This document shows, one piece after another, positions 43,385 through 60,843 of a stretch of DNA of 64,000 bases. The position numbers and the translations under genes were made by a program. Each line of letters starts with the position of its first letter. Within the stretch, counting starts at the first letter, position 1. Under the pieces are notes generated by a model, which did not search any database, had not been told where the DNA came from, and saw only the letters and a list, made by a program, of their open reading frames with translations. The stretch covers positions 4,099-68,098 of the forward strand of contig DEIO01000026.1 in the NCBI GenBank assembly GCA_002352545.1. Reading direction: 5' to 3'. The stretch is from Patescibacteria group bacterium UBA2772. Lineage in GTDB: Bacteria > Patescibacteriota > Minisyncoccia > Moranbacterales > DUUL01.

Positions 43385-43672
43385 ATGAAAAGTTTTAATT
43401 CACTCTTAAAAAAAAGAGTTCAAAATACAAAAAAACTTTCTTTTGATATTCATATTATAAAACAAACAACAGATTTTGTTATTGAGGATATGTTTGGAGA
43501 AATTGGTAAAAAATATATAAAAGTTAAGGACTGGAAGGACGGTGTCCTTGTTTTAGCTGTTTCTAAGTCTGTTTGGAGAAATGAAATTTTTTTAGTAAAA
43601 AATAAACTAAGGTTTGAAATTAATAAAAAGATAAAACAAAATATTGTAAAATTTATAAAAATAAATAAATGA
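43385..43672 (+). CDS. DUF721 (DciA-like) protein
   Basis: 95 aa. The pattern DGVLVLAVSKSVWRNEIFLVKNKLRFEINKKI..IVKFIKI matches the DUF721 signature (L.v.v.ss.w..EL......l...ln......i.f). Position directly after dnaN. Confidence 0.55.
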   Translation: MKSFNSLLKKRVQNTKKLSFDIHIIKQTTDFVIEDMFGEIGKKYIKVKDWKDGVLVLAVSKSVWRNEIFLVKNKLRFEINKKIKQNIVKFIKINK

Positions 43673-45300: not shown

Positions 45301-45411
45301 ATTTTGCATAAATAGAAAGTGTGTTATAATCAAAACAAGTTTGAGAAACATACTTAAATTATTTTGATGTAAGTGTTGTTTACATCAATCATCAAAAAAA
45401 AATAAAAATAA

Positions 45412-46599
45412 ATGAAAAATAACAATATTTTAGGATTATTAAACAGAAAAAAGGTTGTTTTTTTTGTTATCTTTGCTTTTGCATGGTTCCAGTTTTCTCT
45501 TGCAGATGAAAACACATTAAATCGTTTTGAGGATTCAGATGGCGATGATTTATCAAATCAAGAAGAACAAGCAATTGAAACAGATCCAAATAATGCAGAT
45601 ACAGATGGCGATGGCTGGTCTGATGGTGTTGAGTTTAAGAGTGGTTTTGACCCTTTAGTAAAAGACGGAGCAGAAAGTGAACCTGTATTAGGTGAAAGTG
45701 AAGAAGTGAAAACAAATAAAGAAGATGTCTTAGTGGAAGCTACTAATGAAGATGAAAACAAAGGTGAGAGTCCTACAAATACCAAAGAGTCTAATACTGA
45801 AGACGAAGACGCTGGTGAAGTTGATGAAGAGGCTAATGCAACAGTAATTCTTAAGGAAGAGACCAATAAAGTTAAACCAAAAGAGGTAGACTTTTTAAAA
45901 GAGGTTGCTGTTAATAAAGAAATCTTAGAAACAATTGCAGAATCTGGTGAAAATGAAAAATATTCATTAACAGAAGATGAAGTTAAAGATATTGTTGCTA
46001 CAACAATTCAAAAAGCTAATCTTGGTCAGGAATTAGAAATAATTCCTGAAGAAGAATTAAATATTCAAGAAGAAGTTACTGGAGATGATGAAGTGAGTCT
46101 TGAAGAGGAAAAAAAGAATGTTGAAGAATATTTTGTAAAGGTAGGATATATTATTTTTGAAGAAGCTCCTTTTCTTTTCAAAGATAGCGGTAATATGGTT
46201 GGCGTAGCCACAACCCTTATCACAGGAATGGGAAATGATATGGAGGATGGTGAATCTTCGAACATAACAGATATAAAAAGTAAGACAGGTGCTATATATG
46301 AAAAAGTGAAAGAACTAGAAGTCCCATATGTTCTGAAAGATATTCATAAAATAGGACTTTCTTTACAGAAATATATGCTTGGACAAGACGAAACACTTAC
46401 AACAGACAAAGACGATCCTGTTGCTCTAACATCAATGCTTGGGAAAATACAAGCTGTTATGTCAGAAGCAGATGTGTTAGGTGAGGATACATTAGGAATT
46501 TTAGATCAATTTGATATAGATGCCTTTGATATTTCAGATATAACAGGCTCTGTTGATATGCAGGAAATGATGGATACATCATCTATGTATGGTTTGTAA
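45412..46599 (+). CDS. secreted, highly acidic protein with thrombospondin-type-3-like Ca-binding repeats
   Basis: Signal/TM segment VVFFVIFAFAWFQFSLA, then DSDGDDLSNQEEQAIETDPNNADTDGDGWSDGVE, then a long E/D-rich linker. Confidence 0.55.
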   Translation: MKNNNILGLLNRKKVVFFVIFAFAWFQFSLADENTLNRFEDSDGDDLSNQEEQAIETDPNNADTDGDGWSDGVEFKSGFDPLVKDGAESEPVLGESEEVKTNKEDVLVEATNEDENKGESPTNTKESNTEDEDAGEVDEEANATVILKEETNKVKPKEVDFLKEVAVNKEILETIAESGENEKYSLTEDEVKDIVATTIQKANLGQELEIIPEEELNIQEEVTGDDEVSLEEEKKNVEEYFVKVGYIIFEEAPFLFKDSGNMVGVATTLITGMGNDMEDGESSNITDIKSKTGAIYEKVKELEVPYVLKDIHKIGLSLQKYMLGQDETLTTDKDDPVALTSMLGKIQAVMSEADVLGEDTLGILDQFDIDAFDISDITGSVDMQEMMDTSSMYGL

Positions 46600-46629
46600 A
46601 TCTACTTAAAATATTTATACAGATATAAA

Positions 46630-47541
46630 ATGTCAAAAATAAAAAAAATAGTAGCATCGATTGTAATAGCCTCGTTTCTTCTTACATCAGTCACACCAAC
46701 AATTGTACACGCTGAAATGTGGGGTACAAATATTGCATCAAGCATGATGAAACAGGTTTTAGAGCAAGTTTATCTTGTTTTAAGAAAAACAATTTTGCAA
46801 ACATTGAAAAGGGAAGCAAATGAAATGATAAAAAGCAGTATTGAAAAAGCTGTTTCTGGTTCTTCCGGTGAACCAATGGTGGTTTCTGATTACGAAGACT
46901 TTATATTTGGTGCGGCACAAGTTGCTGCTGAGGACACACTGGATGATTTCTTTTCTGTTTTACAAGAAGGAGTTTCTTCTGAAGAAAGAGATATGTTAAG
47001 AAATGTTGAACAAACAATAAGTAAACAACTAACACCAGCAATACCAGAAGTTACATTGCGTGAAGTAGTTGATTCTGATGATCCAATAAGTGATATTTTT
47101 AATCAAAGTAAAGGTGGTGGAATAGGAGCTTTAATGTCTTATCAATTTGGTGCTTACAATAATTCTACGAACGCTTATGTAAATGCAAAGCAAATAGTTC
47201 AGTCCAAGGCTAGGCAAGTTGCTGAAGCGCGGAAAACAGAGGTACTTGCTGGTAGTGGATTTAATACTGTAGTTGATGGGAATAAAGTTATTCCAGGAAA
47301 AGTTTCACAGGAAATTGTTTCTGCTGCTGAGCAAATGCCAATAGAGATGATTAATAATGCTAGTTCTTTAGAAGAAGTTATTGCTAGTTTTGTTGTTTCA
47401 TCAGTTACATCATTTGTAAAGAGTGGAATTAATGTTGTCACCAAGCCAATTAATAACGAAATGAGAAAAATTCGTAGGAATATTGGTAAGAATGGAGTGC
47501 AAGAACTTCAGGATAAACTTAAAAAAGGTCTCACAATCTAA
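46630..47541 (+). CDS. hypothetical secreted protein (T4SS-like cluster)
   Basis: Signal peptide IVASIVIASFLLTSVTPTIVHA; 303 aa; no family recognised. Confidence 0.5.
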   Translation: MSKIKKIVASIVIASFLLTSVTPTIVHAEMWGTNIASSMMKQVLEQVYLVLRKTILQTLKREANEMIKSSIEKAVSGSSGEPMVVSDYEDFIFGAAQVAAEDTLDDFFSVLQEGVSSEERDMLRNVEQTISKQLTPAIPEVTLREVVDSDDPISDIFNQSKGGGIGALMSYQFGAYNNSTNAYVNAKQIVQSKARQVAEARKTEVLAGSGFNTVVDGNKVIPGKVSQEIVSAAEQMPIEMINNASSLEEVIASFVVSSVTSFVKSGINVVTKPINNEMRKIRRNIGKNGVQELQDKLKKGLTI

Positions 47542-47552
47542 AAAGCAAAAAA

Positions 47553-49586
47553 ATGATACTTTTCAAAAACAAAAAAGTAGCGATAAAGGTATTTATACTC
47601 ATAGTGATAGGAGTTTTCTATTTTGGTTTACCAGCGCTTATTCCTACGACGTTTGCATCAAAAAATATAACTTCTGCTGAAGTGATGAATCAAGGAGCCG
47701 ACCAGAAACTTGATGGTTGGGGACCTGATATCGCTAATTGGATCATTATAAAAGCATTACAACTAATGCAATCTGTTTCTGGTTTTGTATTGGGATTAGG
47801 AATGTCATTAGTTGATCTTACGCTATCAGATAAGATGTACGAACAAGTTTTTTTTGCTGGAAGCAGTGTTGAAGCGATTAATACTGGTTGGGGATTAGTT
47901 CGAGATTTTGTTAATATGTTTTTTATACTTATATTAATATTTGTTGCAATTGCGACAATTCTAAGAGTAAATAAGTTTTCAGATAAAAAGTTTATTGTAT
48001 ATGTAGTTTCAGCAGCACTTTTTGTGAATTTTTCGAAACCAATAACGATGTTTATTATTGATATTTCGAATTTGGCCATGTCTTTTTTTATGAGCAATAT
48101 TAGAGAAGGAAATGCCAGTTACTCATCAGCTCTTTTGAATGCGCAGGGACTGGGAGAAATTTTTAAGAGCGACACGCAGAGTGCAGAAACTATGGGTATG
48201 TTGGTAGCGTGGATAGTTGAAATAGTATTTAAGTTTATTATGGGTGTAATGCTTTTATTACTAGGTTTTTCACTTATTGTAAGATTGATTGCACTTTGGG
48301 TATTGATAATTCTTTCCCCACTTGCATTTTTTGCAATGGCTCTTCCCGGAACTGCAATTGCAAGTATAAAAGGAACCTGGGTTAATAAATTAACTTATTG
48401 GTGTTTTTATGGGCCTGTAATGTTGTTTTTCTTCTGGTTAGCACTTGTTCTTGTAAGTGCGATTGGATTAAATGTTGCGTTTGGTGATGCGGAATTGCAA
48501 ATGGCAGGAATTAATAAAAACCATTTCATAATAGGCGCTTTGAAAATAATTATACCATATGCATCTTGTATATATATGTTATTTTATGGCTTTGATCTTT
48601 CTAAAAAGATGGCATCGCAGGCTGGACAAGGAGCTTCTTGGGGACTTGGCAAATCAACAGCAATGTTTGCTGGTGGTGCATTAGCAGCTAAATATGCAGG
48701 AAGAGGTATTGCAAAGGGTGCTAACATGGCAACGGGTGGAATTGCTCCAGTTGCAGTGTCTAATGTAAAGGAATCGTTTAAAAGGAATCGTCAGGCTGGC
48801 GCACTACAGAAAAAAGCTTTTGTACCAGGTGGTGCATTGGATAACAATGTTCATAAATCAAACCTTGTTAATGAAGCTACCAAGCAATGGGATCAGAAAG
48901 GTACACCTAGTGACAAAGAACTTTTGAATATCATGAATAAAAAACCTAGTCTTGTGGGGAAAACAATTGGAAATGCTGCGGGTGTAACAGGAACTAGAGC
49001 AGAGGCAGAGGCAAAAAGAAAAGCTGCCGCAATTAAATTAGCTGAAAAAGGTAAACTGGATAAAGATGGTTATGGAAAGGCTATGAGTTTGCTTTCAAAT
49101 GACAGTGGAAATTTAGAAAAGTTTGAAAAAGCTGCTAAAAAGAGAAATAGAAAAGAATTTATTGAGTATGGTATAGATAAGAACCTAGACAAAGGAGTGG
49201 AGGATGCTATTGTAAATGAAGAAACAAGGATGGGTACCACTATGTCGGCAGACGATAAAACAGCATTTAAAGCAAAAAGTAAAGAAAAAATAAGAAAAGA
49301 GGCTTATGAAAGTGAGTTAAAGAAAATGAACTTATCTGAGATTATGGAACAAAGTCCAGAATTTTTAGAACAAGGAGAAGTTAAAAACTATTTAAGAAAG
49401 AGTACTGGAGAGGGTGTTGAAAAAAGATTTAGCGTGAAGCAAATGAGAAAACAAGCAGCTGAAAACTTAGATGGTAAAAAACAGAAAATATTAGCTGATG
49501 AAAGATTCTTTGAAGAAAGTAAGCCAGATTTATCACCAGATTCTGCTGAAGATGAAAGAGATGCATTAAGAAATATGAATGGATAA
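47553..49586 (+). CDS. TrbL/VirB6-like polytopic membrane protein with charged C-terminal tail
   Basis: 6-7 TM helices with the block ..LIVRLIALWVLIILSPLAFFAMALPGT..W..KL..W.. typical of VirB6/TrbL-like proteins. K/E-rich ~270-aa C-terminal tail. Cluster context with VirB4. Confidence 0.55.
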   Translation: MILFKNKKVAIKVFILIVIGVFYFGLPALIPTTFASKNITSAEVMNQGADQKLDGWGPDIANWIIIKALQLMQSVSGFVLGLGMSLVDLTLSDKMYEQVFFAGSSVEAINTGWGLVRDFVNMFFILILIFVAIATILRVNKFSDKKFIVYVVSAALFVNFSKPITMFIIDISNLAMSFFMSNIREGNASYSSALLNAQGLGEIFKSDTQSAETMGMLVAWIVEIVFKFIMGVMLLLLGFSLIVRLIALWVLIILSPLAFFAMALPGTAIASIKGTWVNKLTYWCFYGPVMLFFFWLALVLVSAIGLNVAFGDAELQMAGINKNHFIIGALKIIIPYASCIYMLFYGFDLSKKMASQAGQGASWGLGKSTAMFAGGALAAKYAGRGIAKGANMATGGIAPVAVSNVKESFKRNRQAGALQKKAFVPGGALDNNVHKSNLVNEATKQWDQKGTPSDKELLNIMNKKPSLVGKTIGNAAGVTGTRAEAEAKRKAAAIKLAEKGKLDKDGYGKAMSLLSNDSGNLEKFEKAAKKRNRKEFIEYGIDKNLDKGVEDAIVNEETRMGTTMSADDKTAFKAKSKEKIRKEAYESELKKMNLSEIMEQSPEFLEQGEVKNYLRKSTGEGVEKRFSVKQMRKQAAENLDGKKQKILADERFFEESKPDLSPDSAEDERDALRNMNG

Positions 49587-49597
49587 AGCAAAACAAA

Positions 49598-50530
49598 ATG
49601 TGTGCAAATATAGAAAAAGAAAATATTTTATTAAGAAGACAAGCTTGTCCAATGAGCGCCAGCATTCACTGGAAACCAGAGGATGATACTGATAAAGATA
49701 TTCAGACATGGTTAGTTGTTTATAATAAATTACCATATCAAATAAGAGTCGGTTTAGTGGACGAGAAGACCGAAAAAGAAATAGTAAAAATAGCAAAAAA
49801 ATATAATTTATACAAAGTAGGAGAAGTAGGAGAAATTTCTAGAATAATTAGAGATTCATTTGTAATTGATGGTTTTAATGAGGCTGATGCCAAAGAGAGA
49901 ATTATCTCTAATCTAAGAGTGGAAGAAACTGCTATGATACGATTGTATGAAGAAATGATTGAATTAAGAAAGAAAATAGGGAATGTGCAAGATGGTGGCC
50001 TGGATGTTGTTATCGAAAAAATGCCTGTTATGGTAGCTATGGATAATTTCCCAGAGATTAGTAATCAACTTATAGGAGAGAAAAAAATAGTTTTAAGTGA
50101 AACAGAAAAATACGAAAAACCAAGCATTGAAAATTGGATTAATGATTATACTTCGCAAAAAGGAGCACAAGCTCATAATAATTTAGAGCGAAGTGATTAT
50201 ATTTTCAATTCAAAAAATGTAGAAAAGCTAACATTCGAAGAAAAGCAAAAATTAGCAATAATTTTGGAATCCTATGATGAAGAAGAAAAGCTATCAGTGG
50301 ATGTTAAAAGAAAAATATTTTTGTTTGATTCTATAGAAAACAACCAGAAAACTTTAAGAGAAGAGGCTTCTCCAGTAAAGAGCAATAGAAGAAAAAGTAT
50401 TTTAGGAGAATTTCCTTTAGTAGAAAGTGAAAATAAGGATAATAGCAGAAAAGAAGAAGGGATGAATGGTAAGAAAGATTTTACAACAAAAGATCAATCA
50501 AAACATATTATCAACCTAAAGGATATCTAA
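49598..50530 (+). CDS. hypothetical soluble protein (T4SS-like cluster)
   Basis: 310-aa ORF, no TM helices, no family recognised. The true start may be the internal MSASIHW. Confidence 0.45.
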   Translation: MCANIEKENILLRRQACPMSASIHWKPEDDTDKDIQTWLVVYNKLPYQIRVGLVDEKTEKEIVKIAKKYNLYKVGEVGEISRIIRDSFVIDGFNEADAKERIISNLRVEETAMIRLYEEMIELRKKIGNVQDGGLDVVIEKMPVMVAMDNFPEISNQLIGEKKIVLSETEKYEKPSIENWINDYTSQKGAQAHNNLERSDYIFNSKNVEKLTFEEKQKLAIILESYDEEEKLSVDVKRKIFLFDSIENNQKTLREEASPVKSNRRKSILGEFPLVESENKDNSRKEEGMNGKKDFTTKDQSKHIINLKDI

Positions 50531-50549
50531 GAAATAGAAAGAATGATAT

Positions 50550-50963
50550 ATGAATTTTAATGTTCCTCAGTATATTGAAGTTGAAGATAAAATTGCTTTT
50601 CAATTAACAATAAAGCAACTAGCCTGGCTTGCTCTCGCTGGCATAGCACTTTTCTTTTTGTGGCAAATAGGGATAGCAGCGCTTATAGTAATAGGAATCC
50701 CAGTGGTTTTATTGGCACTTGCATTTGCTTTTTATAAGCCAGCTGGAATGACATTTTTGCAATTTGTTAAAAATGGGATTTTTTATTTATTTAAACCAAA
50801 AATTCTTACTTGGCACAGAGAGGCAAAAAACCAAATAAAGAGAACGCCAAGAAAGTTAACAGATAGTAAAAGGAAGGCATCGATCAATAGATATGTAAAG
50901 GAGAAGACGCTGAAATCTTCTGGAAGTTTAGCTGATTTATTAGACAAAAATAGTAAGATTTGA
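50550..50963 (+). CDS. PrgI-family (VirB3-like) small membrane protein
   Basis: N-terminus MNFNVPQYIEVEDKIAFQLTIKQLAWLALAGIALFFLW followed by a second TM helix matches the PrgI-family pattern. Sits directly upstream of VirB4-like genes. Confidence 0.55.
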   Translation: MNFNVPQYIEVEDKIAFQLTIKQLAWLALAGIALFFLWQIGIAALIVIGIPVVLLALAFAFYKPAGMTFLQFVKNGIFYLFKPKILTWHREAKNQIKRTPRKLTDSKRKASINRYVKEKTLKSSGSLADLLDKNSKI

Positions 50964-51646
50964 TTATTAAACATAGTTTTATGGCAGGAATGGGTGTTTC
51001 TAGTATGCAAGAACAGCTTAATGTGTCTGAAATTAAAGACGGAGTAGTTGTTGTTAAGGATGGTTCATTAAGGGCTGTTTTGGCAGTTTCTTCAATTAAC
51101 TTTGATTTGAAATCTAGTACTGAACAAGAAGCTATTATTTTTGCATATCAAAGATTTTTAAACTCATTAGATTTTCCAATTCAAATTGTTATTTCAACAA
51201 GAAAGTTTGATATAAAACCATATTTAGAGATGTTGGAAAGAAAGAAAGATACAGAAAGAAACAATTTACTAAGAAATCAAATAGATGATTACGTGCACTT
51301 TATTACTGAATTGGTAAATGTTTCTAATATTATGTCTAAATTATTCTATATAACAATTCCTTTTTATGCAGTTGAAGCAAAAAGAACTGGTTTTATGGAT
51401 AAGGTTATGACAAAAATAAGACCAAGAAAGGTTGTTTATCAAGAAAGAGAAAAATTTGAAACATATAAGAATCAGTTATTTCAAAGAGTTGAGGAAGTAG
51501 AAGAGTCACTTTCTGGTAGTGGTGTGAGAGTGGCACCGTTGGATACACAAGAGTTAATAGAAATGTACTATAATTGTTATAATCCTTCTGAGTTTGAGCA
51601 CGTTGCAGTTCCAACGCTAGAGAATTTAAATCTTGAAAGAGGTTAA
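50960..51646 (+). CDS. hypothetical protein resembling a stand-alone VirB4/TraC N-terminal domain
   Basis: VSEIKDGVVVVKDGSLRAVLAVSSINFDLKSSTEQEAIIFAYQRFLNSLDFPIQIVI resembles the start of VirB4/TraC-type proteins. No P-loop. Overlaps the upstream stop by 4 nt. Confidence 0.4.
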   Translation: MIIKHSFMAGMGVSSMQEQLNVSEIKDGVVVVKDGSLRAVLAVSSINFDLKSSTEQEAIIFAYQRFLNSLDFPIQIVISTRKFDIKPYLEMLERKKDTERNNLLRNQIDDYVHFITELVNVSNIMSKLFYITIPFYAVEAKRTGFMDKVMTKIRPRKVVYQEREKFETYKNQLFQRVEEVEESLSGSGVRVAPLDTQELIEMYYNCYNPSEFEHVAVPTLENLNLERG

Positions 51647-51656
51647 ATAAAAAAAT

Positions 51657-53516
51657 ATGCCAGGTTTACTTAATTTTGGGAAAAACAAAAAAAGCAAAGA
51701 AATTAACAAGAAAAAAGCGGTGGATCCTGCAATAAATATGCAAGGAGAAGTTTCTGACGATTTATTACAAAAGGAAAAACTCTATCAAGAAGGTCTTGCT
51801 AGAGTTATTGATCTTATTTCACCATCAGCTTTTGGTGTCTCTAGCTCTAATCTACAAATTGGAGATACTTTTTGTAGAACCTTGTTTGTAGCAGCTTATC
51901 CAAGAGCTCTTGCTATGGGATGGATGAATCCAGTGATAGGAACCGATCTTCCTTTAGATATATCAATGTTTATCTATCCTGTTGATACGGGGACTATTTT
52001 GAAAAAGTTAAGAAAAAAAGTTACACAAATTCAGTCCGAGATGAACATTGAGGCTGAAAAGGGATTAACAAGAGATCCGATTTTGGAAATGGCGTATAAC
52101 AATGTAGAAGCTCTAAGGGATCAGTTGCAAGAAGGAGTAGAAAGATTTTTCAAGTTTGGCTTATATTTTAATATTTTTGGAGAGACCAAGGAAGTTTTGG
52201 ACAGAAATACTATTATGCTAGAATCTTTGCTAAATGCAAGATCTGTTTATACAAAAAGAACTATTTTTAGAATGAAAGAAGGTTTTGTTTCAACAATACC
52301 TCTTGGGGTTGATAAATTGATGAATGGTAACGCTTTAAATACATCACCTCTTTCAACAACATTCCCTTTTGTTTCAGCGGATGTAACCTCGAATCAAGGA
52401 ATCTTATATGGAATTAACAGACACAATAACTCCTTGATTTTATTTGATCGTTTTTCTATGGAAAATGCAAATATGGTTGTTTTTGCAAAATCTGGTGCAG
52501 GAAAGAGCTATACTGTTAAGTTGGAAATTTTACGTGCACTTATGTTGGGCTCTAGTGCTGTTATTATTGATCCAGAAGATGAATATAAATACCTTTCTGA
52601 AACAGTAGGTGGTTCTTATCTAAGAATTTCTTTAAACACTGATAATCATATCAACCCATTCGATTTATCTGTTGAGGAGGGCATGGAAGTAGAAGATATC
52701 GTCAGAAGTACGATCGCTTCTTTATTGGGGTTATTAAAATTAATGCTTGGAACGTTGACTCCTGAGGAAGAATCAATTTTAGAACAGGCAATTAGAGAAA
52801 CTTATGCAATTAGAGATATAACAGAAGATACGCCTTTAGATGACTTAAAAAGCAGAACAATGCCAATTTTGTCAGACCTATATGAAGTTCTTTCTAATAT
52901 GAAAGGTGTTGAAGACCTAACTATTAGACTTCAAAAATATACAGAAGGTATATTTTCGGGATTTTTGAACAATAGAACAAATATATCATTAGATAATCAG
53001 TTGGTAGTTTTCAATATTAGAGATTTAGAAGAAGAGCTTCGTCCAATGGCTATGTTTATGATTTTAAATTATATTTGGAAAGAAATTAGAATAAATATCA
53101 AAAAAAGGTTAATTGTTGTTGATGAGGCTTGGAGAATGATGGAACATGATGAAGCGGCAAGATTTTTATTTATGGTAGCGAAAAGAATAAGAAAGTATTA
53201 CGGAGGACTTACAACAATTACACAGGATATTTCAGACTTTATGTCGTCTAAATATGGAAAGCCTATTGTGTCAAATTCTTCTATTCAAATGTTGATGAAA
53301 CAATCTCAGTCAGCAATTGATGTTATTGCAGATACCTTTTATCTAACAGACAGGGAAAAATATCTATTAATGGATTGTGATGTGGGAGAGGGAATATTTT
53401 TCGCAGGGCTTAAAAGAGCGGCTATTCAAGTAATCGCTTCATATGACGAGGACAAAATAATAACAACTAATCCTGTTCAGAGAATTGAGATTGAAAAAGA
53501 AGAAAAAGACGATTAA
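51657..53516 (+). CDS. VirB4-family type IV secretion ATPase
   Basis: Walker A FAKSGAGKSYT (nt 52485-52511), Walker B RLIVVDEAW, downstream ITQDISDF. N-terminal block IGDTFCRTLFVAAYPRALAMGWMNPV is typical of Gram-positive VirB4/TraE-like ATPases. Confidence 0.8.
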   Translation: MPGLLNFGKNKKSKEINKKKAVDPAINMQGEVSDDLLQKEKLYQEGLARVIDLISPSAFGVSSSNLQIGDTFCRTLFVAAYPRALAMGWMNPVIGTDLPLDISMFIYPVDTGTILKKLRKKVTQIQSEMNIEAEKGLTRDPILEMAYNNVEALRDQLQEGVERFFKFGLYFNIFGETKEVLDRNTIMLESLLNARSVYTKRTIFRMKEGFVSTIPLGVDKLMNGNALNTSPLSTTFPFVSADVTSNQGILYGINRHNNSLILFDRFSMENANMVVFAKSGAGKSYTVKLEILRALMLGSSAVIIDPEDEYKYLSETVGGSYLRISLNTDNHINPFDLSVEEGMEVEDIVRSTIASLLGLLKLMLGTLTPEEESILEQAIRETYAIRDITEDTPLDDLKSRTMPILSDLYEVLSNMKGVEDLTIRLQKYTEGIFSGFLNNRTNISLDNQLVVFNIRDLEEELRPMAMFMILNYIWKEIRINIKKRLIVVDEAWRMMEHDEAARFLFMVAKRIRKYYGGLTTITQDISDFMSSKYGKPIVSNSSIQMLMKQSQSAIDVIADTFYLTDREKYLLMDCDVGEGIFFAGLKRAAIQVIASYDEDKIITTNPVQRIEIEKEEKDD

Positions 53517-53582
53517 AAAAGTTAGTTGATATAGTATCTTAATTTAGGGGTGTGATTAAGTTGAATTAAATAAATTAGTACT

Positions 53583-54356
53583 ATGAGAAATAAAAGGCTC
53601 AAGGGTGTGCCAAAAAACAGTAAGGATTATTATAAAAATTACTCAACGGCGAGAACTAAATCGCCAGAAGAACAAGAAGCTATTGAAAGAAAAAACGGTT
53701 TTGTTTTGGGGTCCGAAAGAGGTGAAAAATTAGCAAATCAATCAGAGGTTTCCCAAAAATGGAACGGTGGCAAAAATGAAAACCAGCAAAGTAGGCAGCC
53801 ATCAAATAAAACAACTAAAAATGATTCTTCAAAAACTGCGTCTGAAAGAGAAAAGTATAATAAACTACAACAAAGCAGAATCAAAGACCAAAGAACGGCA
53901 ATGAAGTCAACTAGTTCCAAGAGTGTTGTAACAACGAGCAGTAAAGGTGGATCCACAAGAAGAGGTAGAGGCAAAAGAAGAAAAAGAAAACCACAGATAA
54001 ATCAGGACATGGCATATGCAGCAGCTACTGCGTATAAAGAGATTAGTCCTTCTGAAGATGCAGCACATATAATAGCAATAGTTATTTCACTAGGTGCTGA
54101 TATAGGAACATTAGTTCCGGTTTTAAATTGGGTGGTGGCTCCTTTGGCAATAATGACATTATGGGTTGTTTACTTTCTTGGAGGACATTGGCAAAAAAGA
54201 ATTGGTAGAAAAGCAGTTGTTTCAGCGATGGGCTATTCTATAGAGATGATTCCAGTCGCATCAGCTCTTCCAGCTTTCACAATTACGGCTGTTATGAATT
54301 ATTCTATGGCGCTTATAGAGAAAAGACTTATAAAAATGCAAAATAACGAAGTATAA
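53583..54356 (+). CDS. hypothetical membrane protein with basic disordered N-terminus and C-terminal TM helices
   Basis: The N-terminal ~140 aa is K/R/S/N/Q-rich (..RRGRGKRRKRKPQ..), then 3 TM helices. No family recognised. Confidence 0.45.
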   Translation: MRNKRLKGVPKNSKDYYKNYSTARTKSPEEQEAIERKNGFVLGSERGEKLANQSEVSQKWNGGKNENQQSRQPSNKTTKNDSSKTASEREKYNKLQQSRIKDQRTAMKSTSSKSVVTTSSKGGSTRRGRGKRRKRKPQINQDMAYAAATAYKEISPSEDAAHIIAIVISLGADIGTLVPVLNWVVAPLAIMTLWVVYFLGGHWQKRIGRKAVVSAMGYSIEMIPVASALPAFTITAVMNYSMALIEKRLIKMQNNEV

Positions 54357-55030
54357 TGAAGAAAAAAGAGAAAGAAGATATACTATTTGGAATGATAGTT
54401 CTACTTAATTTTTTATTGGTAATACTATTAACAAATCTTTTTTTAAAAGATGTTAGAGCAGGTGGTATTTGGGAGTGGATGGTAATTTCTGCTTTGTTTT
54501 TATTTATATCGCCTTTTTTTATTGTTAAAAAAATATTCAATGAAAATACAGATGAATATTTTTTGAAATTTAATCCTGATTATAAGGAAATAATATACTC
54601 AATATTCATAGCTTCTTTTTTTGTTGCGGTGATGTGTCTTTTTGTGGTAAAATTAAACTGGTTAAATAGTTTAAGAATATCCTCGTGGGTATTAGCAGAA
54701 GATGTAAAATTGATGTTATTTGTTGATCTTTTGATTTTACCGGTAGTTGTTTTTTCTAAAGAATTTTTCTTTAGAGGATTTATATTAAAAAGACTATTGT
54801 CTTTAACAAATGTTTTTTCTGCTATTGTAATTCAAGCAATTTTATTTCTAATTTTTGAAATAGGCACCGGAGAAATGATTTCTTGGAAGAGTATGTTACT
54901 TATATTGTTTCCTAATATACTTTTAGGATTTTTAGCTTATAAAAACAAATCGATTGTTGTTTCAACAGTTTTTCATTGGGTGTATTTGTTAATTTTAGAT
55001 ATTTATTTCTACTACCAATTTGCGTCGTAG
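54356..55030 (+). CDS. CPBP family intramembrane glutamic endopeptidase (CAAX protease/Abi-like)
   Basis: Polytopic 224-aa protein with SKEFFFRGF (EExxxR-type motif 1) and a late FHWVYLL (His motif). Confidence 0.6.
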   Translation: MKKKEKEDILFGMIVLLNFLLVILLTNLFLKDVRAGGIWEWMVISALFLFISPFFIVKKIFNENTDEYFLKFNPDYKEIIYSIFIASFFVAVMCLFVVKLNWLNSLRISSWVLAEDVKLMLFVDLLILPVVVFSKEFFFRGFILKRLLSLTNVFSAIVIQAILFLIFEIGTGEMISWKSMLLILFPNILLGFLAYKNKSIVVSTVFHWVYLLILDIYFYYQFAS

Positions 55031-55051
55031 GAGCTTAAACAAAAATAAATT

Positions 55052-58030
55052 ATGAAAAAATACAAAAAAATAGCGATGTTTTGTATTGCAGCAATGTTTT
55101 TGCTGCTGTTCAGTGTAAATGATGTATCTGCTGAGCCTCAGTGCAAGATTGTAGCAAAAAAAGGTGTTACTATTGATCTAGAAAGAATGTCAGAATGTAT
55201 GGAAGATAGGTATGGATTTGACAAAGATGCTCTGCGAAGAGGTAATAAGAAAAAAATGGTTCCATTAGTGGACGTTTCTTTTAACAAAACAGATCCAAAA
55301 GAGGGTGAAAAAGTTACAGCACTTGCTTCTCCTAAGGGTTTTAAGAATAGTATGGAGGATCTTTTCTATACCTGGTACATAGTACACACAAACGATGATG
55401 GATCATATGCTAACACCATTGAAGCTGGGAAGCAAGAAGCAATGGGTATTATAGCTAGAGGAGAATTTGATGCTGGTCTTTTCGGGATTAACTATGGTAC
55501 AGTTCCTGTTGCAGCAAGAGATGAAGATGGTTATAATGCTGCGTATGGAGGCGACGATGGTGTCGGTGCCAAAAGAGGAAAAAAGGCTGGTGAATGGGAT
55601 GACGAAACGGATAATATTTTTGGTGACGAAAATGAGCCAAATCCAGCAGAAAATCTTATGTTTGATGAAAAAAAACAAATTGTTAAGACAGACTCAATTT
55701 CACGTTGTTATAGACATAATTTTGGAGCACAAACAGATGAAAGTAATCTAGGAAAGCCTGGAAGTGGAGGAGCTTCGAAAGATAAACGAGCTGGAAGAGA
55801 TATGATTATCGATTGCGAACATGAATTTGCTAGATGTTTTTCAGGTGGTGGAGTTGTAGGAACTATCGGTGATGGTGACTTTGGTGTTACAGAGGAGGCT
55901 TGTTGGGGAACTGATCCAACAAATGCAGATACTGATGGAGATGGAATTATTGATGAAGCTGATCTAGCAGGACTTAATCAAACTCAATTAACTTGGATTT
56001 ATCGTCCTGGTGATAGAGTTGGAGTTATTATTGAAGGAACTTCTATGATTCCAATTTCTGAAGGAGGAGAAGAAACAACTTTTTCGATTAATGGATATAG
56101 AATAACAGATCCAGTTACTGGAGCGATTGTTGAGGTTGGTTCTAGAGCAGCAGCTTCTGGGTATTGCGAACAGTTTTTACCAGATAGTATTGATATGGGA
56201 GATGCCTCAGCTGGAGGAGCTGGAGGAGCTGGAGGAGCTGGGGGAGCGGCTTTGTCTGGAGGATCTGGAGGAACAGGTGGAAGTGCTAGTACTAATATTG
56301 ATCTGGATGCTGATATGACAGCTTATAATGTTGGAATGGCTCAATATGATGCATGTGATGATAGTTTGGAGGAGATATATGAATCAGGAGATGTGTCTGA
56401 CGCTGATGGAGAATTAAATGCTTATTATAAAATCATGTGGGCTGCGCCAGGAATTTGCTCAGGACATGATGAGAGTATGAACTTTATTGGAGATGATGAC
56501 TGTGAGCCTGGTTTCACACATTCCTCTGACTGGGGTTTTCCTTATCAAGCAACAATTTCAATTAATGAAACAGGTGGAACAGCGCTAGACCCTGAACTTA
56601 GCGTAATTCCAGAAGCACCTCAATATGATGGTGTAGAGCCTAACTTTGATAATAAAAGATCTGATTTAATTACTGTAAATGCTAGTTTAAGCAACGAAGG
56701 TGTTAATGAGGACTTTCTGCATTATAAGTGGAGTATAGATCGTTGTAATGGAAATGATTTTACTGCTTGTAATAATCCTGTTAATAATTTAAAGTACGAA
56801 TCTTTTACAGAAGGAATGGGTGTTAGAGAGCTTAAATTTTTACCAACATCTGATATATTTAATGGTGTTGCTAGTGACAAAGTTTGGTTAAGAGCAACAG
56901 TTATTGTTAGCGAGCATGAGTCTTTAGCTGGAGGCCAACATACAGATATTGACGGACGTACCGTTGGAGCGGTTGAAAGGATCTATTTTCCAGTTACTAA
57001 AAATATTGTTGATATAACTTTAAGTGGTGTAGAGGTTAATGGAGGTGGTAACTGGGCTGTTGATCCTGCTATTGGTGTAGGAGGTCTTATCTGTGATGCA
57101 AATTTATACAAAGATATTTGTCCAGTATATCCTTATCAAGCAATTAAAGCGCAAGCAGCGATTGCAGCTGGGGTTGCAGGAACAACCTATAAATATTCTT
57201 GGCAAATAAATGATACAAAAGTTGAAGCACCAGAGGATTATACTAATATCTCAGGGATGCTTAGTGCAGACAATCAAACCAATGAAATTTATATTCCAAT
57301 TCAAGCTGTTGAAGACGAAATTATTTCTTTGCAACTTACTACAAAAATAACACTTCCGTCCGGTGAAATGAGTGAACATGTTTCACAGAGAATCCTTTCT
57401 GCTGCAAGTCCAAAGCCAGCCATTGAACTTGTTGCCGGTGCTACAGCGACACTTAGGTCTGATGGTACGCCTTCGGATTCTGTTTATGAAGCTCGTAATT
57501 TACAAACTGTTACATTTAGAGCTCTTCCAGTACCAAGATATTTGACTATAAATGATCCTACTACTCCGCAAGAAGAACATGAAGTTGATTTGATTTGGTA
57601 TCTAAATGATATTGAGGTAGATGCACAATTTATTGCTGAGAACAGATTATTGCTAAATACAGCAGTTGGAGTTGATACAATAACGTTTACTATTCCAGTT
57701 GATATGACTTTGGCAACAGGTATTGATTTGAAGGCTAGGCTGGTTAAAAACTTTACCTCTGGTGCTGCAACAGATTATGTTGATATGATGAAAAGTACCT
57801 GGAGAGTCAATGATATTCATACACTAGCTAGTGACACAGCTATTTCTGTCAGAGCTGAATTCGATATGTTATTAGCTTCAGATACAACACTGAAACAATA
57901 TATAGCTTCTTCCTTTAGTAATGCACCGCATTATCTAATTTTTACAATAAGGCTTGCGATTGCAATGGTACTTATTTGGAGCATTATGTTTGGATTTTCT
58001 TATGCAGTTAGACTAAACAGAGAATTATAA
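55052..58030 (+). CDS. large surface protein: signal peptide, TSP3-like Ca-binding repeat, Gly-rich tract, C-terminal TM anchor
   Basis: 992 aa. Signal peptide FCIAAMFLLLFSVNDVSA, DPTNADTDGDGIIDEADL, AGGAGGAGGAGGAALSGGSGGTGGS, and C-terminal hydrophobic LIFTIRLAIAMVLIWSIMFGF. Confidence 0.6.
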   Translation: MKKYKKIAMFCIAAMFLLLFSVNDVSAEPQCKIVAKKGVTIDLERMSECMEDRYGFDKDALRRGNKKKMVPLVDVSFNKTDPKEGEKVTALASPKGFKNSMEDLFYTWYIVHTNDDGSYANTIEAGKQEAMGIIARGEFDAGLFGINYGTVPVAARDEDGYNAAYGGDDGVGAKRGKKAGEWDDETDNIFGDENEPNPAENLMFDEKKQIVKTDSISRCYRHNFGAQTDESNLGKPGSGGASKDKRAGRDMIIDCEHEFARCFSGGGVVGTIGDGDFGVTEEACWGTDPTNADTDGDGIIDEADLAGLNQTQLTWIYRPGDRVGVIIEGTSMIPISEGGEETTFSINGYRITDPVTGAIVEVGSRAAASGYCEQFLPDSIDMGDASAGGAGGAGGAGGAALSGGSGGTGGSASTNIDLDADMTAYNVGMAQYDACDDSLEEIYESGDVSDADGELNAYYKIMWAAPGICSGHDESMNFIGDDDCEPGFTHSSDWGFPYQATISINETGGTALDPELSVIPEAPQYDGVEPNFDNKRSDLITVNASLSNEGVNEDFLHYKWSIDRCNGNDFTACNNPVNNLKYESFTEGMGVRELKFLPTSDIFNGVASDKVWLRATVIVSEHESLAGGQHTDIDGRTVGAVERIYFPVTKNIVDITLSGVEVNGGGNWAVDPAIGVGGLICDANLYKDICPVYPYQAIKAQAAIAAGVAGTTYKYSWQINDTKVEAPEDYTNISGMLSADNQTNEIYIPIQAVEDEIISLQLTTKITLPSGEMSEHVSQRILSAASPKPAIELVAGATATLRSDGTPSDSVYEARNLQTVTFRALPVPRYLTINDPTTPQEEHEVDLIWYLNDIEVDAQFIAENRLLLNTAVGVDTITFTIPVDMTLATGIDLKARLVKNFTSGAATDYVDMMKSTWRVNDIHTLASDTAISVRAEFDMLLASDTTLKQYIASSFSNAPHYLIFTIRLAIAMVLIWSIMFGFSYAVRLNREL
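56210..56245 (+). repeat. tandem 9-bp coding repeat (GCTGGAGGA x3 + GCTGGGGGA)
   Basis: Read directly: gctggagga gctggagga gctggagga gctggggga, encoding AGG repeats within the 992-aa protein. Confidence 0.85.
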
Positions 58031-58044
58031 CATAATATCAGTAT

Positions 58045-58458
58045 ATGCGATTAGACAAAAATAAAAGTATTCTATTCATTGGCCTAGTGTTTTTGTTTCA
58101 AACTACTAGTGTTTTTGCTGGGGGGTACACAACAAAAGAACTTATTCCAGGTGAAGCTGTTGGCTCGAATGATTTCATGACTTATTTGAATTCGTTTTAT
58201 AATTTTGGTATTGCTATATCAGCATTACTTGCGGTGTTTATGATTGGGTTCGGTGCTTTTAAATATGTAGCTCTTTCTGCTGGAAATGCCTCGACTATGA
58301 GTGATGCGAAAGAAACTGTTTATAGTGCTATCTTTGGATTGACATTGGCTTTAATCGCTTGGTTAATTTTATATGTTATTAATCCTGATTTGGTGAATAA
58401 CTCAATGACAACAATTCCTACAATTAAAGATTGTACTAATCCGGCTAACTGTAAGTAG
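58045..58458 (+). CDS. T4SS pilin-like (VirB2/TrbC-like) small protein
   Basis: 137 aa. Signal peptide (LFIGLVFLFQTTSVFAGG), then two hydrophobic helices (FGIAISALLAVFMIGFGAF; AIFGLTLALIAWLILYVINPDLV). Architecture and the ..NP.L ending are as I recall for CPR/Firmicute T4SS pilins. Confidence 0.5.
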   Translation: MRLDKNKSILFIGLVFLFQTTSVFAGGYTTKELIPGEAVGSNDFMTYLNSFYNFGIAISALLAVFMIGFGAFKYVALSAGNASTMSDAKETVYSAIFGLTLALIAWLILYVINPDLVNNSMTTIPTIKDCTNPANCK

Positions 58459-58481
58459 AAATTTACGGACAAATTAAATAA

Positions 58482-59651
58482 ATGGCAAAAAAAGTTTTTA
58501 TAGTTTTTGTAATATTGTTTCTAACAATGTTATTAGGTTTCGCGATACACAGTATTTCTTCTGAGGAAGAGAGTTTTATTATTGGAGAGAAGCCAACAGG
58601 CGCGGAAGTTGGAGAAGAGGATGATCCAGGAGGGTCGAATCAAACTGATCCCGGGGAGGAAGAATTTAATGAAGGGAAACTTACCAAAATTATTGATGGA
58701 GGAATGGGAGTTGTTCGGGGAGTTACCTTGAATTATTCAACGGAACAAGTTTTATATTATCAGAAAAGAAACTTTTTACTAGCTAATTTTAATGGTAAAA
58801 CAAAAAGTTCAGTTGGGGGATATCCTTTCATTAATGTTAAGGATATAAAATGGAATATCACTAAAGAAAAAGCTTTAGTGAAGGACAATCATAGATACTA
58901 TATCTATGATTTAAATAAAAATAAAGCAGAAGAATTAAGCAAAAAAATTGATTATGCTGTTTGGTTTAAATATATGCTTAAAGATAAAATTGCATATAAG
59001 TTTTATGATGTTGATACAGGGAAGAGAAAATTAGCAATAGCAGATTCTGATGGACAAAATGAGGAAGTTTTAGTAGAAGAGTTGCCTTTTAGAATGGTTG
59101 GAATTGAAATACCAGAAAACGGTAGTAAGGTATGTTATTTTAGAGAACCAGATGCTAATTTTAAAGCTAGATTGAATTGTGTAAACTTAAAGACAAAGCA
59201 AAAGGAAATTTTACACAGAGGTTCATTTGCAGCTGATTATAGGTGGGCAAAAAATGGAAATAGAATACTAACTTCTTATGTTAGTGAGCAGATTGGTAGT
59301 AAAATGGTGTTGGGCTCAATGAATGGAAAAGGCGGTGAATTTAGAAGCTTTAATTTCCCAACATCAGTAGACAAGTGTGTCTGGTCTAAGGATAACAGAA
59401 AGATCTATTGTGCTATGATGGTTTTTAAAGAAAAAAACATTATATTACCAAATGACTGGAGTCTAAGTAAATATCAATCAATGGATACTTTCTGGGAACT
59501 TGATGTTGAGACTGGTAAAAAAAGAAGACTCTTAGAAAGTGCCGAAATGACTTCAGTCGATGCAACGAATTTATTTTTAGATAGTAATGAAGGAAAATTA
59601 TTTTTTACAGACAAAAATTCTAAAAGTGTCTATGTTATATCTTTGAAATAG
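58482..59651 (+). CDS. membrane-anchored extracytoplasmic protein, probable TolB-like (PD40) beta-propeller
   Basis: N-terminal TM helix, acidic linker, then repeats resembling PD40 blades (YRWAKNGNRILTSYV, CVWSKDNRKIYCAM, LFFTDKNSKSVYVISL). Confidence 0.4.
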   Translation: MAKKVFIVFVILFLTMLLGFAIHSISSEEESFIIGEKPTGAEVGEEDDPGGSNQTDPGEEEFNEGKLTKIIDGGMGVVRGVTLNYSTEQVLYYQKRNFLLANFNGKTKSSVGGYPFINVKDIKWNITKEKALVKDNHRYYIYDLNKNKAEELSKKIDYAVWFKYMLKDKIAYKFYDVDTGKRKLAIADSDGQNEEVLVEELPFRMVGIEIPENGSKVCYFREPDANFKARLNCVNLKTKQKEILHRGSFAADYRWAKNGNRILTSYVSEQIGSKMVLGSMNGKGGEFRSFNFPTSVDKCVWSKDNRKIYCAMMVFKEKNIILPNDWSLSKYQSMDTFWELDVETGKKRRLLESAEMTSVDATNLFLDSNEGKLFFTDKNSKSVYVISLK

Positions 59652-60843
59652 TTATTTCTTTAGGGTAAAACAAAAGAATGCCTAGAAATAACCAAAAAAT
59701 AACAGATAAGTCATTTTTCCAAATTGTTGTATCAATAATACCGTGAATAAGAAGATAAAACAGCATAAAGAAGATAAGCGCTCCTAGGGGCGTTTTTTTA
59801 GTATTCCACTTAGAGACGAATAAGATGATAATTCCAAAAAGTGAGAATAAACCACCTTCTACTAGAAAAAGTAAGAAATTATTGTGAGGATGTGGAACGG
59901 CCCATTGAGGAAAGGGAGGATTATAGCGCTGTTTTGACAGGTATTTTTCTTGAAAGTTTCCTGGCCCAATTCCTGTAAGATAATCGTTAGCAATAATTTG
60001 TCTAGTGACCTCATATATTACAATACGGGAATCAGTTGAAGTAGGAGGTGACTTTTGTGTATATCCTAAGGAAGAGGTTATTTTTTGAGAAAACAACAAT
60101 GTTATTGAGATACAGAAGATGATTGCAAGTAAAAGCAACTGAAGATTATTATAGCGTATATTTCTAATTTCTTTTACAAAAAATACAAAAAGTAGAACTA
60201 TTAGAGTTAGAAATGCACCAGTTGATGAAGTGGCTATTGTGGAAAAGGTGTGGATAAGAAGTAAAAGTAATAAAAAGTACTTTAAAATAGGGCTTTTAAA
60301 GTACTTTTTACTGTTGATAAGATTAATAAGCAGAAGAATCGATAAAGAGAGTAGTATGGCAAGGTGATTAGGTGAATCTAGAAAAATTTCAACTCTCCCA
60401 TCAAAAGTTAGTTCTTTGGTAAAAAAATAAAAAATCCCGGTACTTGCGAGAAAAGTACTCATAGAAAGATAGGATAGAAGGATATTTTTTATGGTAAGTA
60501 GCGACTTGTTTACTAAAAAAGAAACAGTCCAAGAGAAAAAGATTGGTAAAAACAAAAAACTTTTCAGAATGCCTAAATTATCAAAGATGTTTATTTTAGT
60601 TGTATTGAAAAGAAAGGAAACAAAAAAGCCAATAAATATGAACAAAAAAGCTATCTTTGTAAGTAGGGATATATTAAGAAAGTTTTTTAAATATTTTTTT
60701 CTTATTATCCAGGTTAGATTAGTAAGTACAGACAATAAAAGCAATAGATCAAGAATATTTAAACTAGCATTTCTAAAAAGAGGCACTTTGATTAAGTGAA
60801 GAGGAATCAGGGCAATAGTAATGTAATTTATGAGCTTAATCAT
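59635..60843 (-). CDS. O-antigen ligase/polymerase-like (Wzy_C) membrane protein
   Basis: About 10 TM helices. Periplasmic-loop motif PHPHNNFLLFLVEGGLFSLFG resembles the Wzy_C HN..L....E.G..G signature. Confidence 0.65.
   Translation of the reverse strand: MIKLINYITIALIPLHLIKVPLFRNASLNILDLLLLLSVLTNLTWIIRKKYLKNFLNISLLTKIAFLFIFIGFFVSFLFNTTKINIFDNLGILKSFLFLPIFFSWTVSFLVNKSLLTIKNILLSYLSMSTFLASTGIFYFFTKELTFDGRVEIFLDSPNHLAILLSLSILLLINLINSKKYFKSPILKYFLLLLLLIHTFSTIATSSTGAFLTLIVLLFVFFVKEIRNIRYNNLQLLLLAIIFCISITLLFSQKITSSLGYTQKSPPTSTDSRIVIYEVTRQIIANDYLTGIGPGNFQEKYLSKQRYNPPFPQWAVPHPHNNFLLFLVEGGLFSLFGIIILFVSKWNTKKTPLGALIFFMLFYLLIHGIIDTTIWKNDLSVIFWLFLGILLFYPKEITISKI

Follow-up and report, generated by a model that had tools for sequence, protein, structure and literature searches.

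The 64-kb stretch of Patescibacteria group bacterium UBA2772 analyzed here (the window) is part of a 73.8-kb contig, and our searches for mobility genes also covered 6.7 kb more of the same contig. At 45412-59651 the window carries 12 open reading frames (ORFs), g1 to g12, all intact and all on the plus strand, that include the core genes of a type IV secretion system (T4SS). A preliminary description made from the letters alone had placed 12 closely packed genes here, and every one of these ORFs is present. The intergenic distances from g1 to g12 are 30, 11, 11, 19, -4, 10, 66, -1, 21, 14, and 23 nt. The two overlaps (-4 and -1 nt) and the maximum gap of 66 nt are as that description had them. 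The genes are as follows.

g1, 45412-46599 (+), very acidic protein, secreted or anchored, in which 97 of 395 residues are D or E; carries bacterial thrombospondin type 3 (TSP3) Ca-binding repeats; first gene of the cluster
g2, 46630-47541 (+), secreted protein with a signal peptide, predicted to be mostly helical; directly upstream of g3
g3, 47553-49586 (+), VirB6/TrbL-like polytopic membrane protein with about 6-7 transmembrane (TM) helices; some 300 residues at the C-terminus are hydrophilic
g4, 49598-50530 (+), soluble protein; residues 1-245 fold into two domains, and the disordered tail after them ends in a conserved SKHxxNLKDI
g5, 50550-50963 (+), PrgI/VirB3-like protein with two predicted TM helices
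g6, 50960-51646 (+), TrsD/TraD-family protein with a TTG start; overlaps the stop of g5 by 4 nt
g7, 51657-53516 (+), VirB4 ATPase body of the MPF-FATA (monoderm conjugation) type, by NCBIfam, Pfam, and PDB profile matches
g8, 53583-54356 (+), membrane protein; the N-terminal 140 residues are strongly basic and of low complexity, and about three TM helices lie toward the C-terminus
g9, 54356-55030 (+), CPBP/Rce1-like protein with seven TM helices, possibly non-catalytic; overlaps the stop of g8 by 1 nt
g10, 55052-58030 (+), 992-aa acidic surface protein with 15 Cys, a signal peptide, and a C-terminal motif, TM helix, and short charged tail
g11, 58045-58458 (+), VirB2-like T4SS pilin with a signal peptide and two hydrophobic helices
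g12, 58482-59651 (+), TolB/PD40-like beta-propeller (by family profile) with one predicted N-terminal TM helix as a membrane anchor

Pfam assignments were counted where they scored above the gathering cutoff of the model, as they did for g1, g5, g7, g9, and g11. The ATPase g7 scores 349 bits (cutoff 325) against NCBIfam conju_CD1110, a model of the VirB4 of Firmicutes integrative and conjugative elements (ICEs). It also scores 110 bits against the Pfam models TraG P-loop/AAA_10/DUF87 (TraG P-loop e-value 1.5e-31). A profile of the g7 family matched the VirB4 structure 4AG5 in the PDB with an e-value of 3e-60 and R388 TrwK with 2e-7. Judged by these matches, g7 is a true VirB4, as first described, and not a member of FtsK/HerA, the affinity that the preliminary description had named as fatal to its reading. 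The protein directly upstream, g6, had been counted together with g2 and g4 among three proteins of no recognizable family. That view stands for g2 and g4. In g6 we found a match to NCBIfam TrsD (e-value 1.3e-9) over positions 11-200 of 201, which places it in the TrsD/TraD family. Since g6 and g7 cover complementary parts of the same VirB4 models (11-123 and 179-728 of the 752 positions of conju_CD1110, and 7-177 and 239-727 of TIGR00929), g6 is, on model coverage, the detached N-terminal domain of VirB4, and the two genes together encode a split VirB4. When the g6 and g7 families were compared by hhalign, nothing significant came out (probability 0.07%), as it should if g6 is the N-domain and g7 has none; the question was decided by the NCBIfam coverage. 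A VirB4 split in this manner is known from TrsD/TrsE of pGO1.

The other core assignments of the preliminary description also hold. The Pfam PrgI model matches g5 with an e-value of 6e-10 and 40 bits (cutoff 27), and TcpE matches with 8.5e-5. No Pfam model matched g3 itself; five of the 29 members of its family match Pfam TrbL/VirB6 (best e-value 3.8e-8), and the TM region of g3 is not significantly similar to TrwI, the VirB6 of R388 (e-value 0.54). The VirB6-like assignment of g3 is thus indirect, made through the TrbL matches of its family members and the topology of some 6-7 hydrophobic helices. The two-helix protein g11 matches the Pfam family T4SS_pilin (PF18895) with an e-value of 9.6e-7 and 29.2 bits (cutoff 26.6). 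It also matches, weakly and below the cutoff (e-value 4e-4), the NCBIfam family Mbov_0395, a pilin-like conjugal transfer protein of Mycoplasma ICEs, and g6 and g7 match the VirB4 family Mbov_0397, the neighbor of Mbov_0395. These similarities hint that some relatives of MPF-FATA systems may have VirB2-like pilins after all.

We compared the cluster with the 80 loci that gave the closest VirB4 matches, taking one genome per GTDB species, by tblastn and by family hidden Markov models (HMMs) run against all their ORFs. VirB4 identity across these loci is 44-92%. Nearly all are labeled Patescibacteria, or candidate phyla radiation (CPR); the minority with other taxon labels look like binning or labeling errors. 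The nearest loci, at 89% identity, are in metagenome-assembled genomes of Candidatus Moraniibacteriota. The preliminary description would have fallen had its genes not co-occurred outside this genome, and they do co-occur in related loci. The g6 family is present in 70 of the 80, directly upstream of VirB4, g5 in 64, and g3 in 47, and the order g3, g4, g5 is kept in 38, as is the full five-gene core run g3-g4-g5-g6-g7. A pilin gene lies nearby in 47 loci, sometimes in arrays of 5-7. Among more distant loci, L065, L066, and L070 (and L061) have 4-7 pilin-domain genes beside VirB4, with many of the pilin-family matches in proteins of 300-540 aa. These arrays are consistent with published ones.

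The protein encoded between VirB6 and PrgI, g4, has no match in Pfam, NCBIfam, or the PDB by sequence or profile. Its family occurs in 47 of the 80 loci, in 38 of them between VirB6 and PrgI, and was not detected by HMM in the 17 most distant loci (L064-L080). From this distribution, the family looks specific to Paceibacteria-like lineages. It is large: in a library of 1.84 billion representatives we found 1,201 clusters (at 50% identity) with an e-value of 1e-3 or better and 312 with 1e-30 or better. The preliminary description had proposed structure prediction for the proteins without a family. For g4 this gave a confident AlphaFold2 (AF2) model, with a pLDDT of about 93 over residues 1-245, and a Foldseek search of this model against the PDB and BFVD returned no match at an e-value below 0.2 to either a solved or a viral structure. 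For g2 the model has a pLDDT of 38 and is unusable for fold comparison, including comparison with a VirB5-like fold.

The disordered tail of g4 follows the pattern (I/V)(I/V)NLK, and the copy in the window ends in IINLKDI. Several long homologs (P0055, P0061, P0062, P0070, P0071, P0076, and P0077) have disordered, K/E-rich N-termini of 200-450 residues. Repeated VVNLK/VVSLKG-like motifs occur in these N-termini, and the proteins end near LDLSSEI. In sequence, the repeated motif looks like a short linear binding or recognition motif. We considered whether the long homologs might be fusions of g4 to VirB6 and rejected this: the N-terminal regions are disordered and K/E-rich and have no TM helices. 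In the first genome listed in Table S3 of a recent survey, VirB6 is gene 531 and VirB3/TrsD/VirB4 are genes 533-535, while gene 532 is unlisted (PMC12102498). Going by that one table entry, the g4 family has apparently not been recognized as a T4SS component before. It could be a cytoplasmic adaptor that takes over part of the role of the missing coupling protein or of VirB8. Alternatively, it could be translocated itself, as a conserved substrate with the C-terminal (I/V)(I/V)NLK tail as the recognition signal.

Six further proteins of the cluster are predicted to be at the envelope and are less widely distributed. The preliminary description saw TSP3 repeats in two of them. This is borne out for g1, which matches Pfam TSP3_bac with an e-value of 2.7e-8 and 34 bits (cutoff 25), has weak matches to the NCBIfam MtsD/CglD repeat, and has a predicted N-terminal hydrophobic segment. 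It does not hold for g10, where we found a single TSP3-like motif, DPTNADTDGDGIIDEAD, at about residue 290, on which Pfam is silent at an e-value of 0.1 or better. A g1 homolog stands at the head of the cluster in 16 of the 80 loci. The secreted protein g2 has no match in Pfam, NCBIfam, or the PDB, profile search included, and only 13 close homologs among 5.8 billion proteins. HMM matches to g2 were found in 13 loci, each time between g1 and g3. Likewise, g8 was matched in 13 loci, directly after VirB4, and has no Pfam or NCBIfam family; its N-terminal 140 residues contain 37 K+R and 13 D+E, in keeping with the highly basic N-terminus first reported. The propeller fold proposed for g12 is supported by a match of its family profile to TolB structures (e-value 5.7e-6), by Pfam PD40 in four of 18 family members, and by the NCBIfam TolB propeller at 0.0028. 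It occurs in 19 loci and follows the pilin where a pilin is present. A role for g12 as a Tol-Pal component was rejected: TolA, TolQ, TolR, and Pal are absent and the cell is a monoderm.

The adjoining genes g9 and g10 appear to go together. HMM matches to g10 were found in 12 of the 80 loci and to g9 in 10, all of them g10 carriers. The preliminary description called g9 a CPBP intramembrane protease. The fold is upheld by Pfam Rce1-like (e-value 3e-11, 43.9 bits, cutoff 22.4), while the catalytic histidines are not conserved. Within the catalytic-motif regions of 10 orthologs, only E136, R140, Q160, and D215 are invariant. Compared with the CPBP motifs EExxxR, FxxxH, and HxxxN/D, the first Glu and both His vary; motif 1 keeps its second Glu and its Arg. 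These positions were read from the sequence and not from a structural alignment; the g9 profile had no match in the PDB from which to align it to Rce1. For g10 we found no Pfam or PDB family beyond chance Ig-like matches. At its C-terminus, an ASSxxNAPxYLIF motif precedes a TM helix and a short tail, and this arrangement is kept in 10 aligned orthologs. Among all ORFs of the window and of the loci, only nine, all g10 orthologs, have the exact motif pattern.

This end resembles the substrates of myxosortase-type CPBP systems (MrtX/MrtS/MrtJ/MrtA), whose tripartite C-terminal signals contain an invariant Cys (Haft, 2023; bioRxiv 10.1101/2023.06.07.544157). The best NCBIfam matches of g9 are to such proteases (MrtS 2.7e-9, MrtA 1e-8, and Mrt_core 1.4e-6), g9 lies immediately upstream of g10, and g10 ends in a motif, a TM helix, and a charged tail. 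However, the Mrt scores are all below their own cutoffs, the g10 motif has no Cys, and neither the catalytic His nor the first Glu of g9 is conserved. We therefore rejected g9 and g10 as a myxosortase-type pair of protease and substrate. By sequence g9 would be a CPBP-fold partner of g10, with its predicted protease activity doubtful.

We searched the window and the additional 6.7 kb for a type IV coupling protein (T4CP), a relaxase, VirB11, and an integrase and found none. The preliminary description had reported these as missing from the window together with a cell-wall hydrolase. The hydrolase is the part of that statement that needs amending: a secreted 3D-domain protein at 6329-6937 (-), 39 kb from the cluster, is a candidate wall-lytic (lytic transglycosylase-like) enzyme, and the only one. 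A CAP/SCP-domain protein with a C-terminal TM helix is encoded near it at 7421-8479 (-), also far from the T4SS. Among the 12 cluster proteins there is no Pfam or NCBIfam match to a VirB1-type hydrolase or a VirB8-like scaffold. The cluster is not flanked by att-like direct repeats, as had been noted before; the longest direct repeat is a coding sequence for the shared TSP3 motif. The flanks of the syntenic relatives contain no mobile-element genes, so that the virD4, relaxase, or integrase gene that would have pointed to a degraded element was not found there. The lack of both a relaxase and a linked T4CP speaks against conjugation.

The surroundings of the cluster fit a replication origin. 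The neighboring features are listed below.

dnaA, 40551-41951, upstream of the cluster
dnaN, 42229-43377, upstream; ends 2,035 bp before g1
DciA-family gene (dciA), 43385-43672, upstream
UbiA-family prenyltransferase gene, 43669-45300 (+), between dciA and g1; polytopic N-terminal extension of about 290 residues
candidate operon promoter, 45303-45330 (+), TTTGCA-16 nt-TATAAT with an extended -10 TG, in the 111-nt gap between the UbiA gene and g1; weak
two Wzy_C (O-antigen ligase-like) genes and a GT2 glycosyltransferase gene, 59635-62856 (-), converging on the end of the cluster

The order dnaA-dnaN-dciA-UbiA-g1...g12-Wzy-Wzy-GT2 is collinear in L001-L011 and L020, which form a Moraniibacteriota-like group. 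This answers the synteny check proposed in the preliminary description, and it bears out the placement of the cluster about 2 kb from dnaN in core chromosome. Within the group, identity falls to 25-35% for g1, g2, g9, g10, and g12, while the ORFs remain intact and full-length. Because the orthologous ORFs are all intact and full-length, the locus is incompatible with a decaying element. The UbiA gene, with its N-terminal extension, is kept between dciA and g1 in all loci of the group. The UbiA, Wzy, and GT2 genes have no evident link to secretion and are as syntenic there as the accessory genes. Outside the group, in other Paceibacteria lineages, g1, g2, and g12 accompany the core in L035, L036, L059, L060, and L062, with the block on the other side of dnaA. 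Over all 80 loci, dnaA is less than 10 kb from VirB4 in 33. From this distribution, the TSP3 protein g1, g2, g8, the g9-g10 pair, and the TolB-like g12 appear to form an accessory module of the Moraniibacteriota group.

Wzy_C-family enzymes include pilin O-oligosaccharyltransferases. By analogy with PglL/PilO-type enzymes, the Wzy_C and GT2 enzymes next to the cluster might glycosylate the pilin or surface proteins. A linkage of pilin, propeller, Wzy, and Wzy recurs in other arrangements in distant Paceibacteria loci (L031, L035, L036, L060, and L025).

The cumulative GC skew has its minimum at 38-40 kb, beside dnaA, which fits a replication origin there. A scan of the window for DnaA boxes gave 23 matches against 19 expected in shuffled sequence, which is no enrichment. 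The origin call is thus made from the GC skew and the dnaA-dnaN-dciA genes. Just upstream of dnaA there are only two near-consensus DnaA boxes, at 40462-40481. Two perfect consensus sites in opposite orientation are located at 34417-34425 and 34485-34493, in the intergenic region between rarA and a major facilitator superfamily (MFS) gene, 6 kb from dnaA. Directly upstream of dnaA, at 39463-40347 (+), is a gene for a 294-aa secreted protein with no family match. In a consensus scan, promoter-like sites across the region were not enriched over shuffled sequence, and the site at 45303-45330 is a candidate only.

The GC content of the cluster (0.30-0.38) is similar to that of the rest of the window. 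The remaining genes of the window are mostly housekeeping genes (infB, rbfA, nfo, two uvrA, uvrC, recG, murI, an ABC transporter, rarA, and a CCA enzyme), with several surface and glycosylation genes. The two full-length UvrA paralogs, read from translations, surround an apparent uvrC (9599-12442, 12545-13789, and 14166-17057, all on the minus strand). The 6.7 kb past GT2 encode a helix-turn-helix protein, an aminoacyl-tRNA synthetase, CNNM, TatD, and GT4.

T4SSs are already known from Patescibacteria. In Southlakia epibionticum the T4SS cluster SEML1_0006-0019 is essential for epibiotic growth; it resembles Gram-positive conjugation systems, includes essential pilin genes, and has no recognizable coupling protein or relaxase (Wang et al., 2023; PMC10633639). 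The locus tags begin at 0006, which points to a position close to the beginning of the record. The VirB4 proteins of Patescibacteria form a monophyletic clade related to MPF-FATA (Quinonero-Coronel et al., 2025; PMC12102498). The same survey found TrsD, PrgI/VirB3, VirB6, and PF18895 pilins near virB4, with TrsD the commonest partner, and T4SS loci often near dnaA/dnaN in Paceibacteria and Microgenomatia. It counted 5,713 T4CP homologs in 2,918 genomes, mostly far from virB4 (PMC12102498). Reviews leave the role of these systems open; among the ideas they raise, as speculation, are a pilus or conduit, the delivery of effectors, and the uptake of nucleotides (PMC12857230; PMC11665869). The cluster in the window shares with the published systems a TrsD upstream of VirB4, PrgI/VirB3, VirB6, a PF18895 pilin, the lack of a nearby relaxase or T4CP, and a chromosomal site beside dnaA/dnaN. 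It has every defining feature of the published Patescibacteria T4SS that was examined here and is not new in kind. The statement in the preliminary description that the gene set was not explained by known families is therefore not supported, since such T4SSs had been published (PMC10633639; PMC12102498).

We conclude that the locus is very probably the chromosomal T4SS characteristic of Patescibacteria, here in a Candidatus Moraniibacteriota-like genome, and that it would act in host contact and not in conjugation. This agrees with the non-conjugative, T4SS-derived envelope or host-interaction machine first proposed: the core is confirmed, and the region searched has no T4CP, relaxase, or integrase. 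In solved Gram-negative T4SSs, VirB3 and the N-domain of VirB4 anchor VirB4 hexamers under a VirB6 platform where the pilin polymerizes. By analogy with solved T4SSs, g3, g5, g6, and g7 would form the cytoplasmic-membrane complex. ATP hydrolysis by VirB4 would extract the Sec-inserted pilin g11 from the membrane, and polymerized g11 would make a short pilus or conduit across the thin monoderm envelope. In such a machine g4 would act in the cytoplasm as a family-specific subunit or adaptor; its disordered tail and conserved C-terminal motif might also mark it as a substrate. The extracellular, adhesive, or scaffolding part would come from g1, g2, g8, g9, g10, and g12. The corresponding extracellular and scaffold parts of Gram-positive conjugation systems are the adhesin PrgB, the hydrolase PrgK, and the VirB8-like PrgL, which are unrelated proteins. 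Going only by position and conservation, it is plausible that the accessory envelope proteins stand in for the adhesin, the scaffold, and the hydrolase of these systems. The whole would serve contact-dependent interaction with a host, by attachment and/or by transfer of protein or other material.

Several points weigh against this interpretation. VirB8-, VirB1-, and VirB5-like parts were not found in the cluster. A processing role for g9 is doubtful because its family lacks the conserved catalytic histidines. The function of the T4SS in this lineage is assigned wholly by analogy. T4CP homologs are common elsewhere in Patescibacteria genomes, which leaves room for DNA transfer (PMC12102498). 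Finally, the assignment of all 12 genes to a single machine is an inference: synteny is in itself no proof that the accessory genes belong to it, since UbiA, Wzy, and GT2 are equally syntenic.

The last point leads to the alternative that only g3-g7 and g11 form a T4SS, with g1, g2, g8, g9, g10, and g12 as unrelated surface genes in a conserved neighborhood near the origin. We consider this unlikely, though it deserves serious attention. The accessory genes are found in a minority of the 80 loci (10-13 for g2, g8, g9, and g10, 16 for g1, and 19 for g12), the full set only in the Moraniibacteriota-like group, where UbiA, Wzy, and GT2 are just as collinear, and none of their proteins matches a known T4SS family. 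However, g8-g10 sit inside the cluster, with VirB4 before them and the pilin after them and gaps of 66, -1, 21, and 14 nt, and g1, g2, and g12 travel with the core even in the five loci where the block is on the other side of dnaA. All six are envelope proteins encoded on one strand, with no outstanding terminator-like break inside the cluster.

It is improbable, in our estimate, that the machine takes up or exchanges DNA in the manner of the ComB system of Helicobacter pylori or the archaeal Ced system, importing host DNA or nucleotides for a cell unable to synthesize the latter. T4SSs without a T4CP or relaxase are known to import DNA, and the idea has been raised for this group (PMC11665869). 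In the window, g7 has weak matches to the models of the DNA-import ATPases CedB (2.5e-7) and CedD (7e-7), which are far under its match to conjugative VirB4 (349 bits), and the basic, disordered cytoplasmic region of g8 could, from its composition, bind nucleic acid. T4SS loci of the ABY1 class adjoin comF, recG, and radA (PMC12102498). No competence genes adjoin the locus in the window or the further 6.7 kb. In S. epibionticum comEC is dispensable and the T4SS is essential (PMC12857230), so that the essential role there is not ComEC-linked uptake.

A working conjugation apparatus, with its coupling protein and relaxase encoded elsewhere in the genome, seems to us very improbable. The genome beyond the window and the 6.7 kb was unseen, g7 is closest to conjugative Firmicutes ICE families, and in Patescibacteria VirD4-like genes are common and T4CP genes often lie far from virB4 (PMC12102498). 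Relaxases, in contrast, are rare in the group, with 109 in 103 genomes against 2,474 virB4 genes, and the T4CP of S. epibionticum is non-essential while its T4SS genes are essential (PMC12102498). The fixed site beside dnaA/dnaN in the core chromosome, kept across an order-level group, also argues against conjugation. A decayed ICE remnant is scarcely credible and largely refuted: the monoderm conjugative ancestry of VirB4, TrsD, and PrgI (PMC12102498) and the missing coupling protein, relaxase, and integrase are set against 12 intact ORFs, full-length orthologs in at least 10 genomes despite 25-35% identity, flanking housekeeping genes conserved in synteny, and the absence of att repeats or any compositional anomaly.

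The host-contact T4SS that we favor leaves the picture of Patescibacteria T4SSs unchanged and shows a stable extra set of envelope proteins in one lineage. Few machines are known to be essential to epibiotic life in Patescibacteria, a very large, mostly uncultured group, and their T4SS is among them. What seems undescribed so far is the g4 family and the accessory module of the Moraniibacteriota group, both modest additions. As g4 is linked to VirB6, VirB3, and VirB4 as tightly as those are to each other, it and the accessory proteins are candidates for an adaptor, a scaffold, and an adhesin. Tentatively, and with the chances somewhat against it, g4 may be an unrecognized core subunit or a conserved substrate of Paceibacteria-type T4SSs, and the Moraniibacteriota machine may have acquired an extracellular module of its own. 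If this is true, g1, g2, g12, and g10, with the degenerate CPBP-like g9, would build an envelope-spanning or host-binding structure unlike that of any described T4SS.

Compared with S. epibionticum, the cluster has one pilin gene and not an array, and no peptidase or lysozyme genes follow virB4 (PMC12102498). The set of g1, g2, g8, g9-g10, and g12 is absent from the main text of the survey of Patescibacteria T4SSs (PMC12102498). With the MPF-FATA systems (Trs of pGO1/pSK41, Tra of pIP501, Prg of pCF10, and the Clostridioides difficile CTn CD1110) it shares the order VirB3-like, TrsD/TraD, VirB4, a VirB4 above the CD1110 cutoff, and the lack of the outer-membrane core proteins VirB7, VirB9, and VirB10. 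Unlike these systems, the cluster has no recognizable T4CP, relaxase, VirB1-type hydrolase, or VirB8-like protein, and it is not on a plasmid or ICE. Gram-positive systems generally lack a VirB2-like pilin, whereas one is present here as g11 (PMC12102498; PMC12857230). As in ComB of H. pylori, Ptl of Bordetella, and VirB of Brucella, there is no dedicated coupling protein or relaxase, and the system is chromosomal with one organismal function (PMC12102498). Those three are MPF-T systems of diderms that have VirB7-10 and, as a rule, VirB11, whereas the sequence affinity of the cluster described here is to the systems of monoderms.

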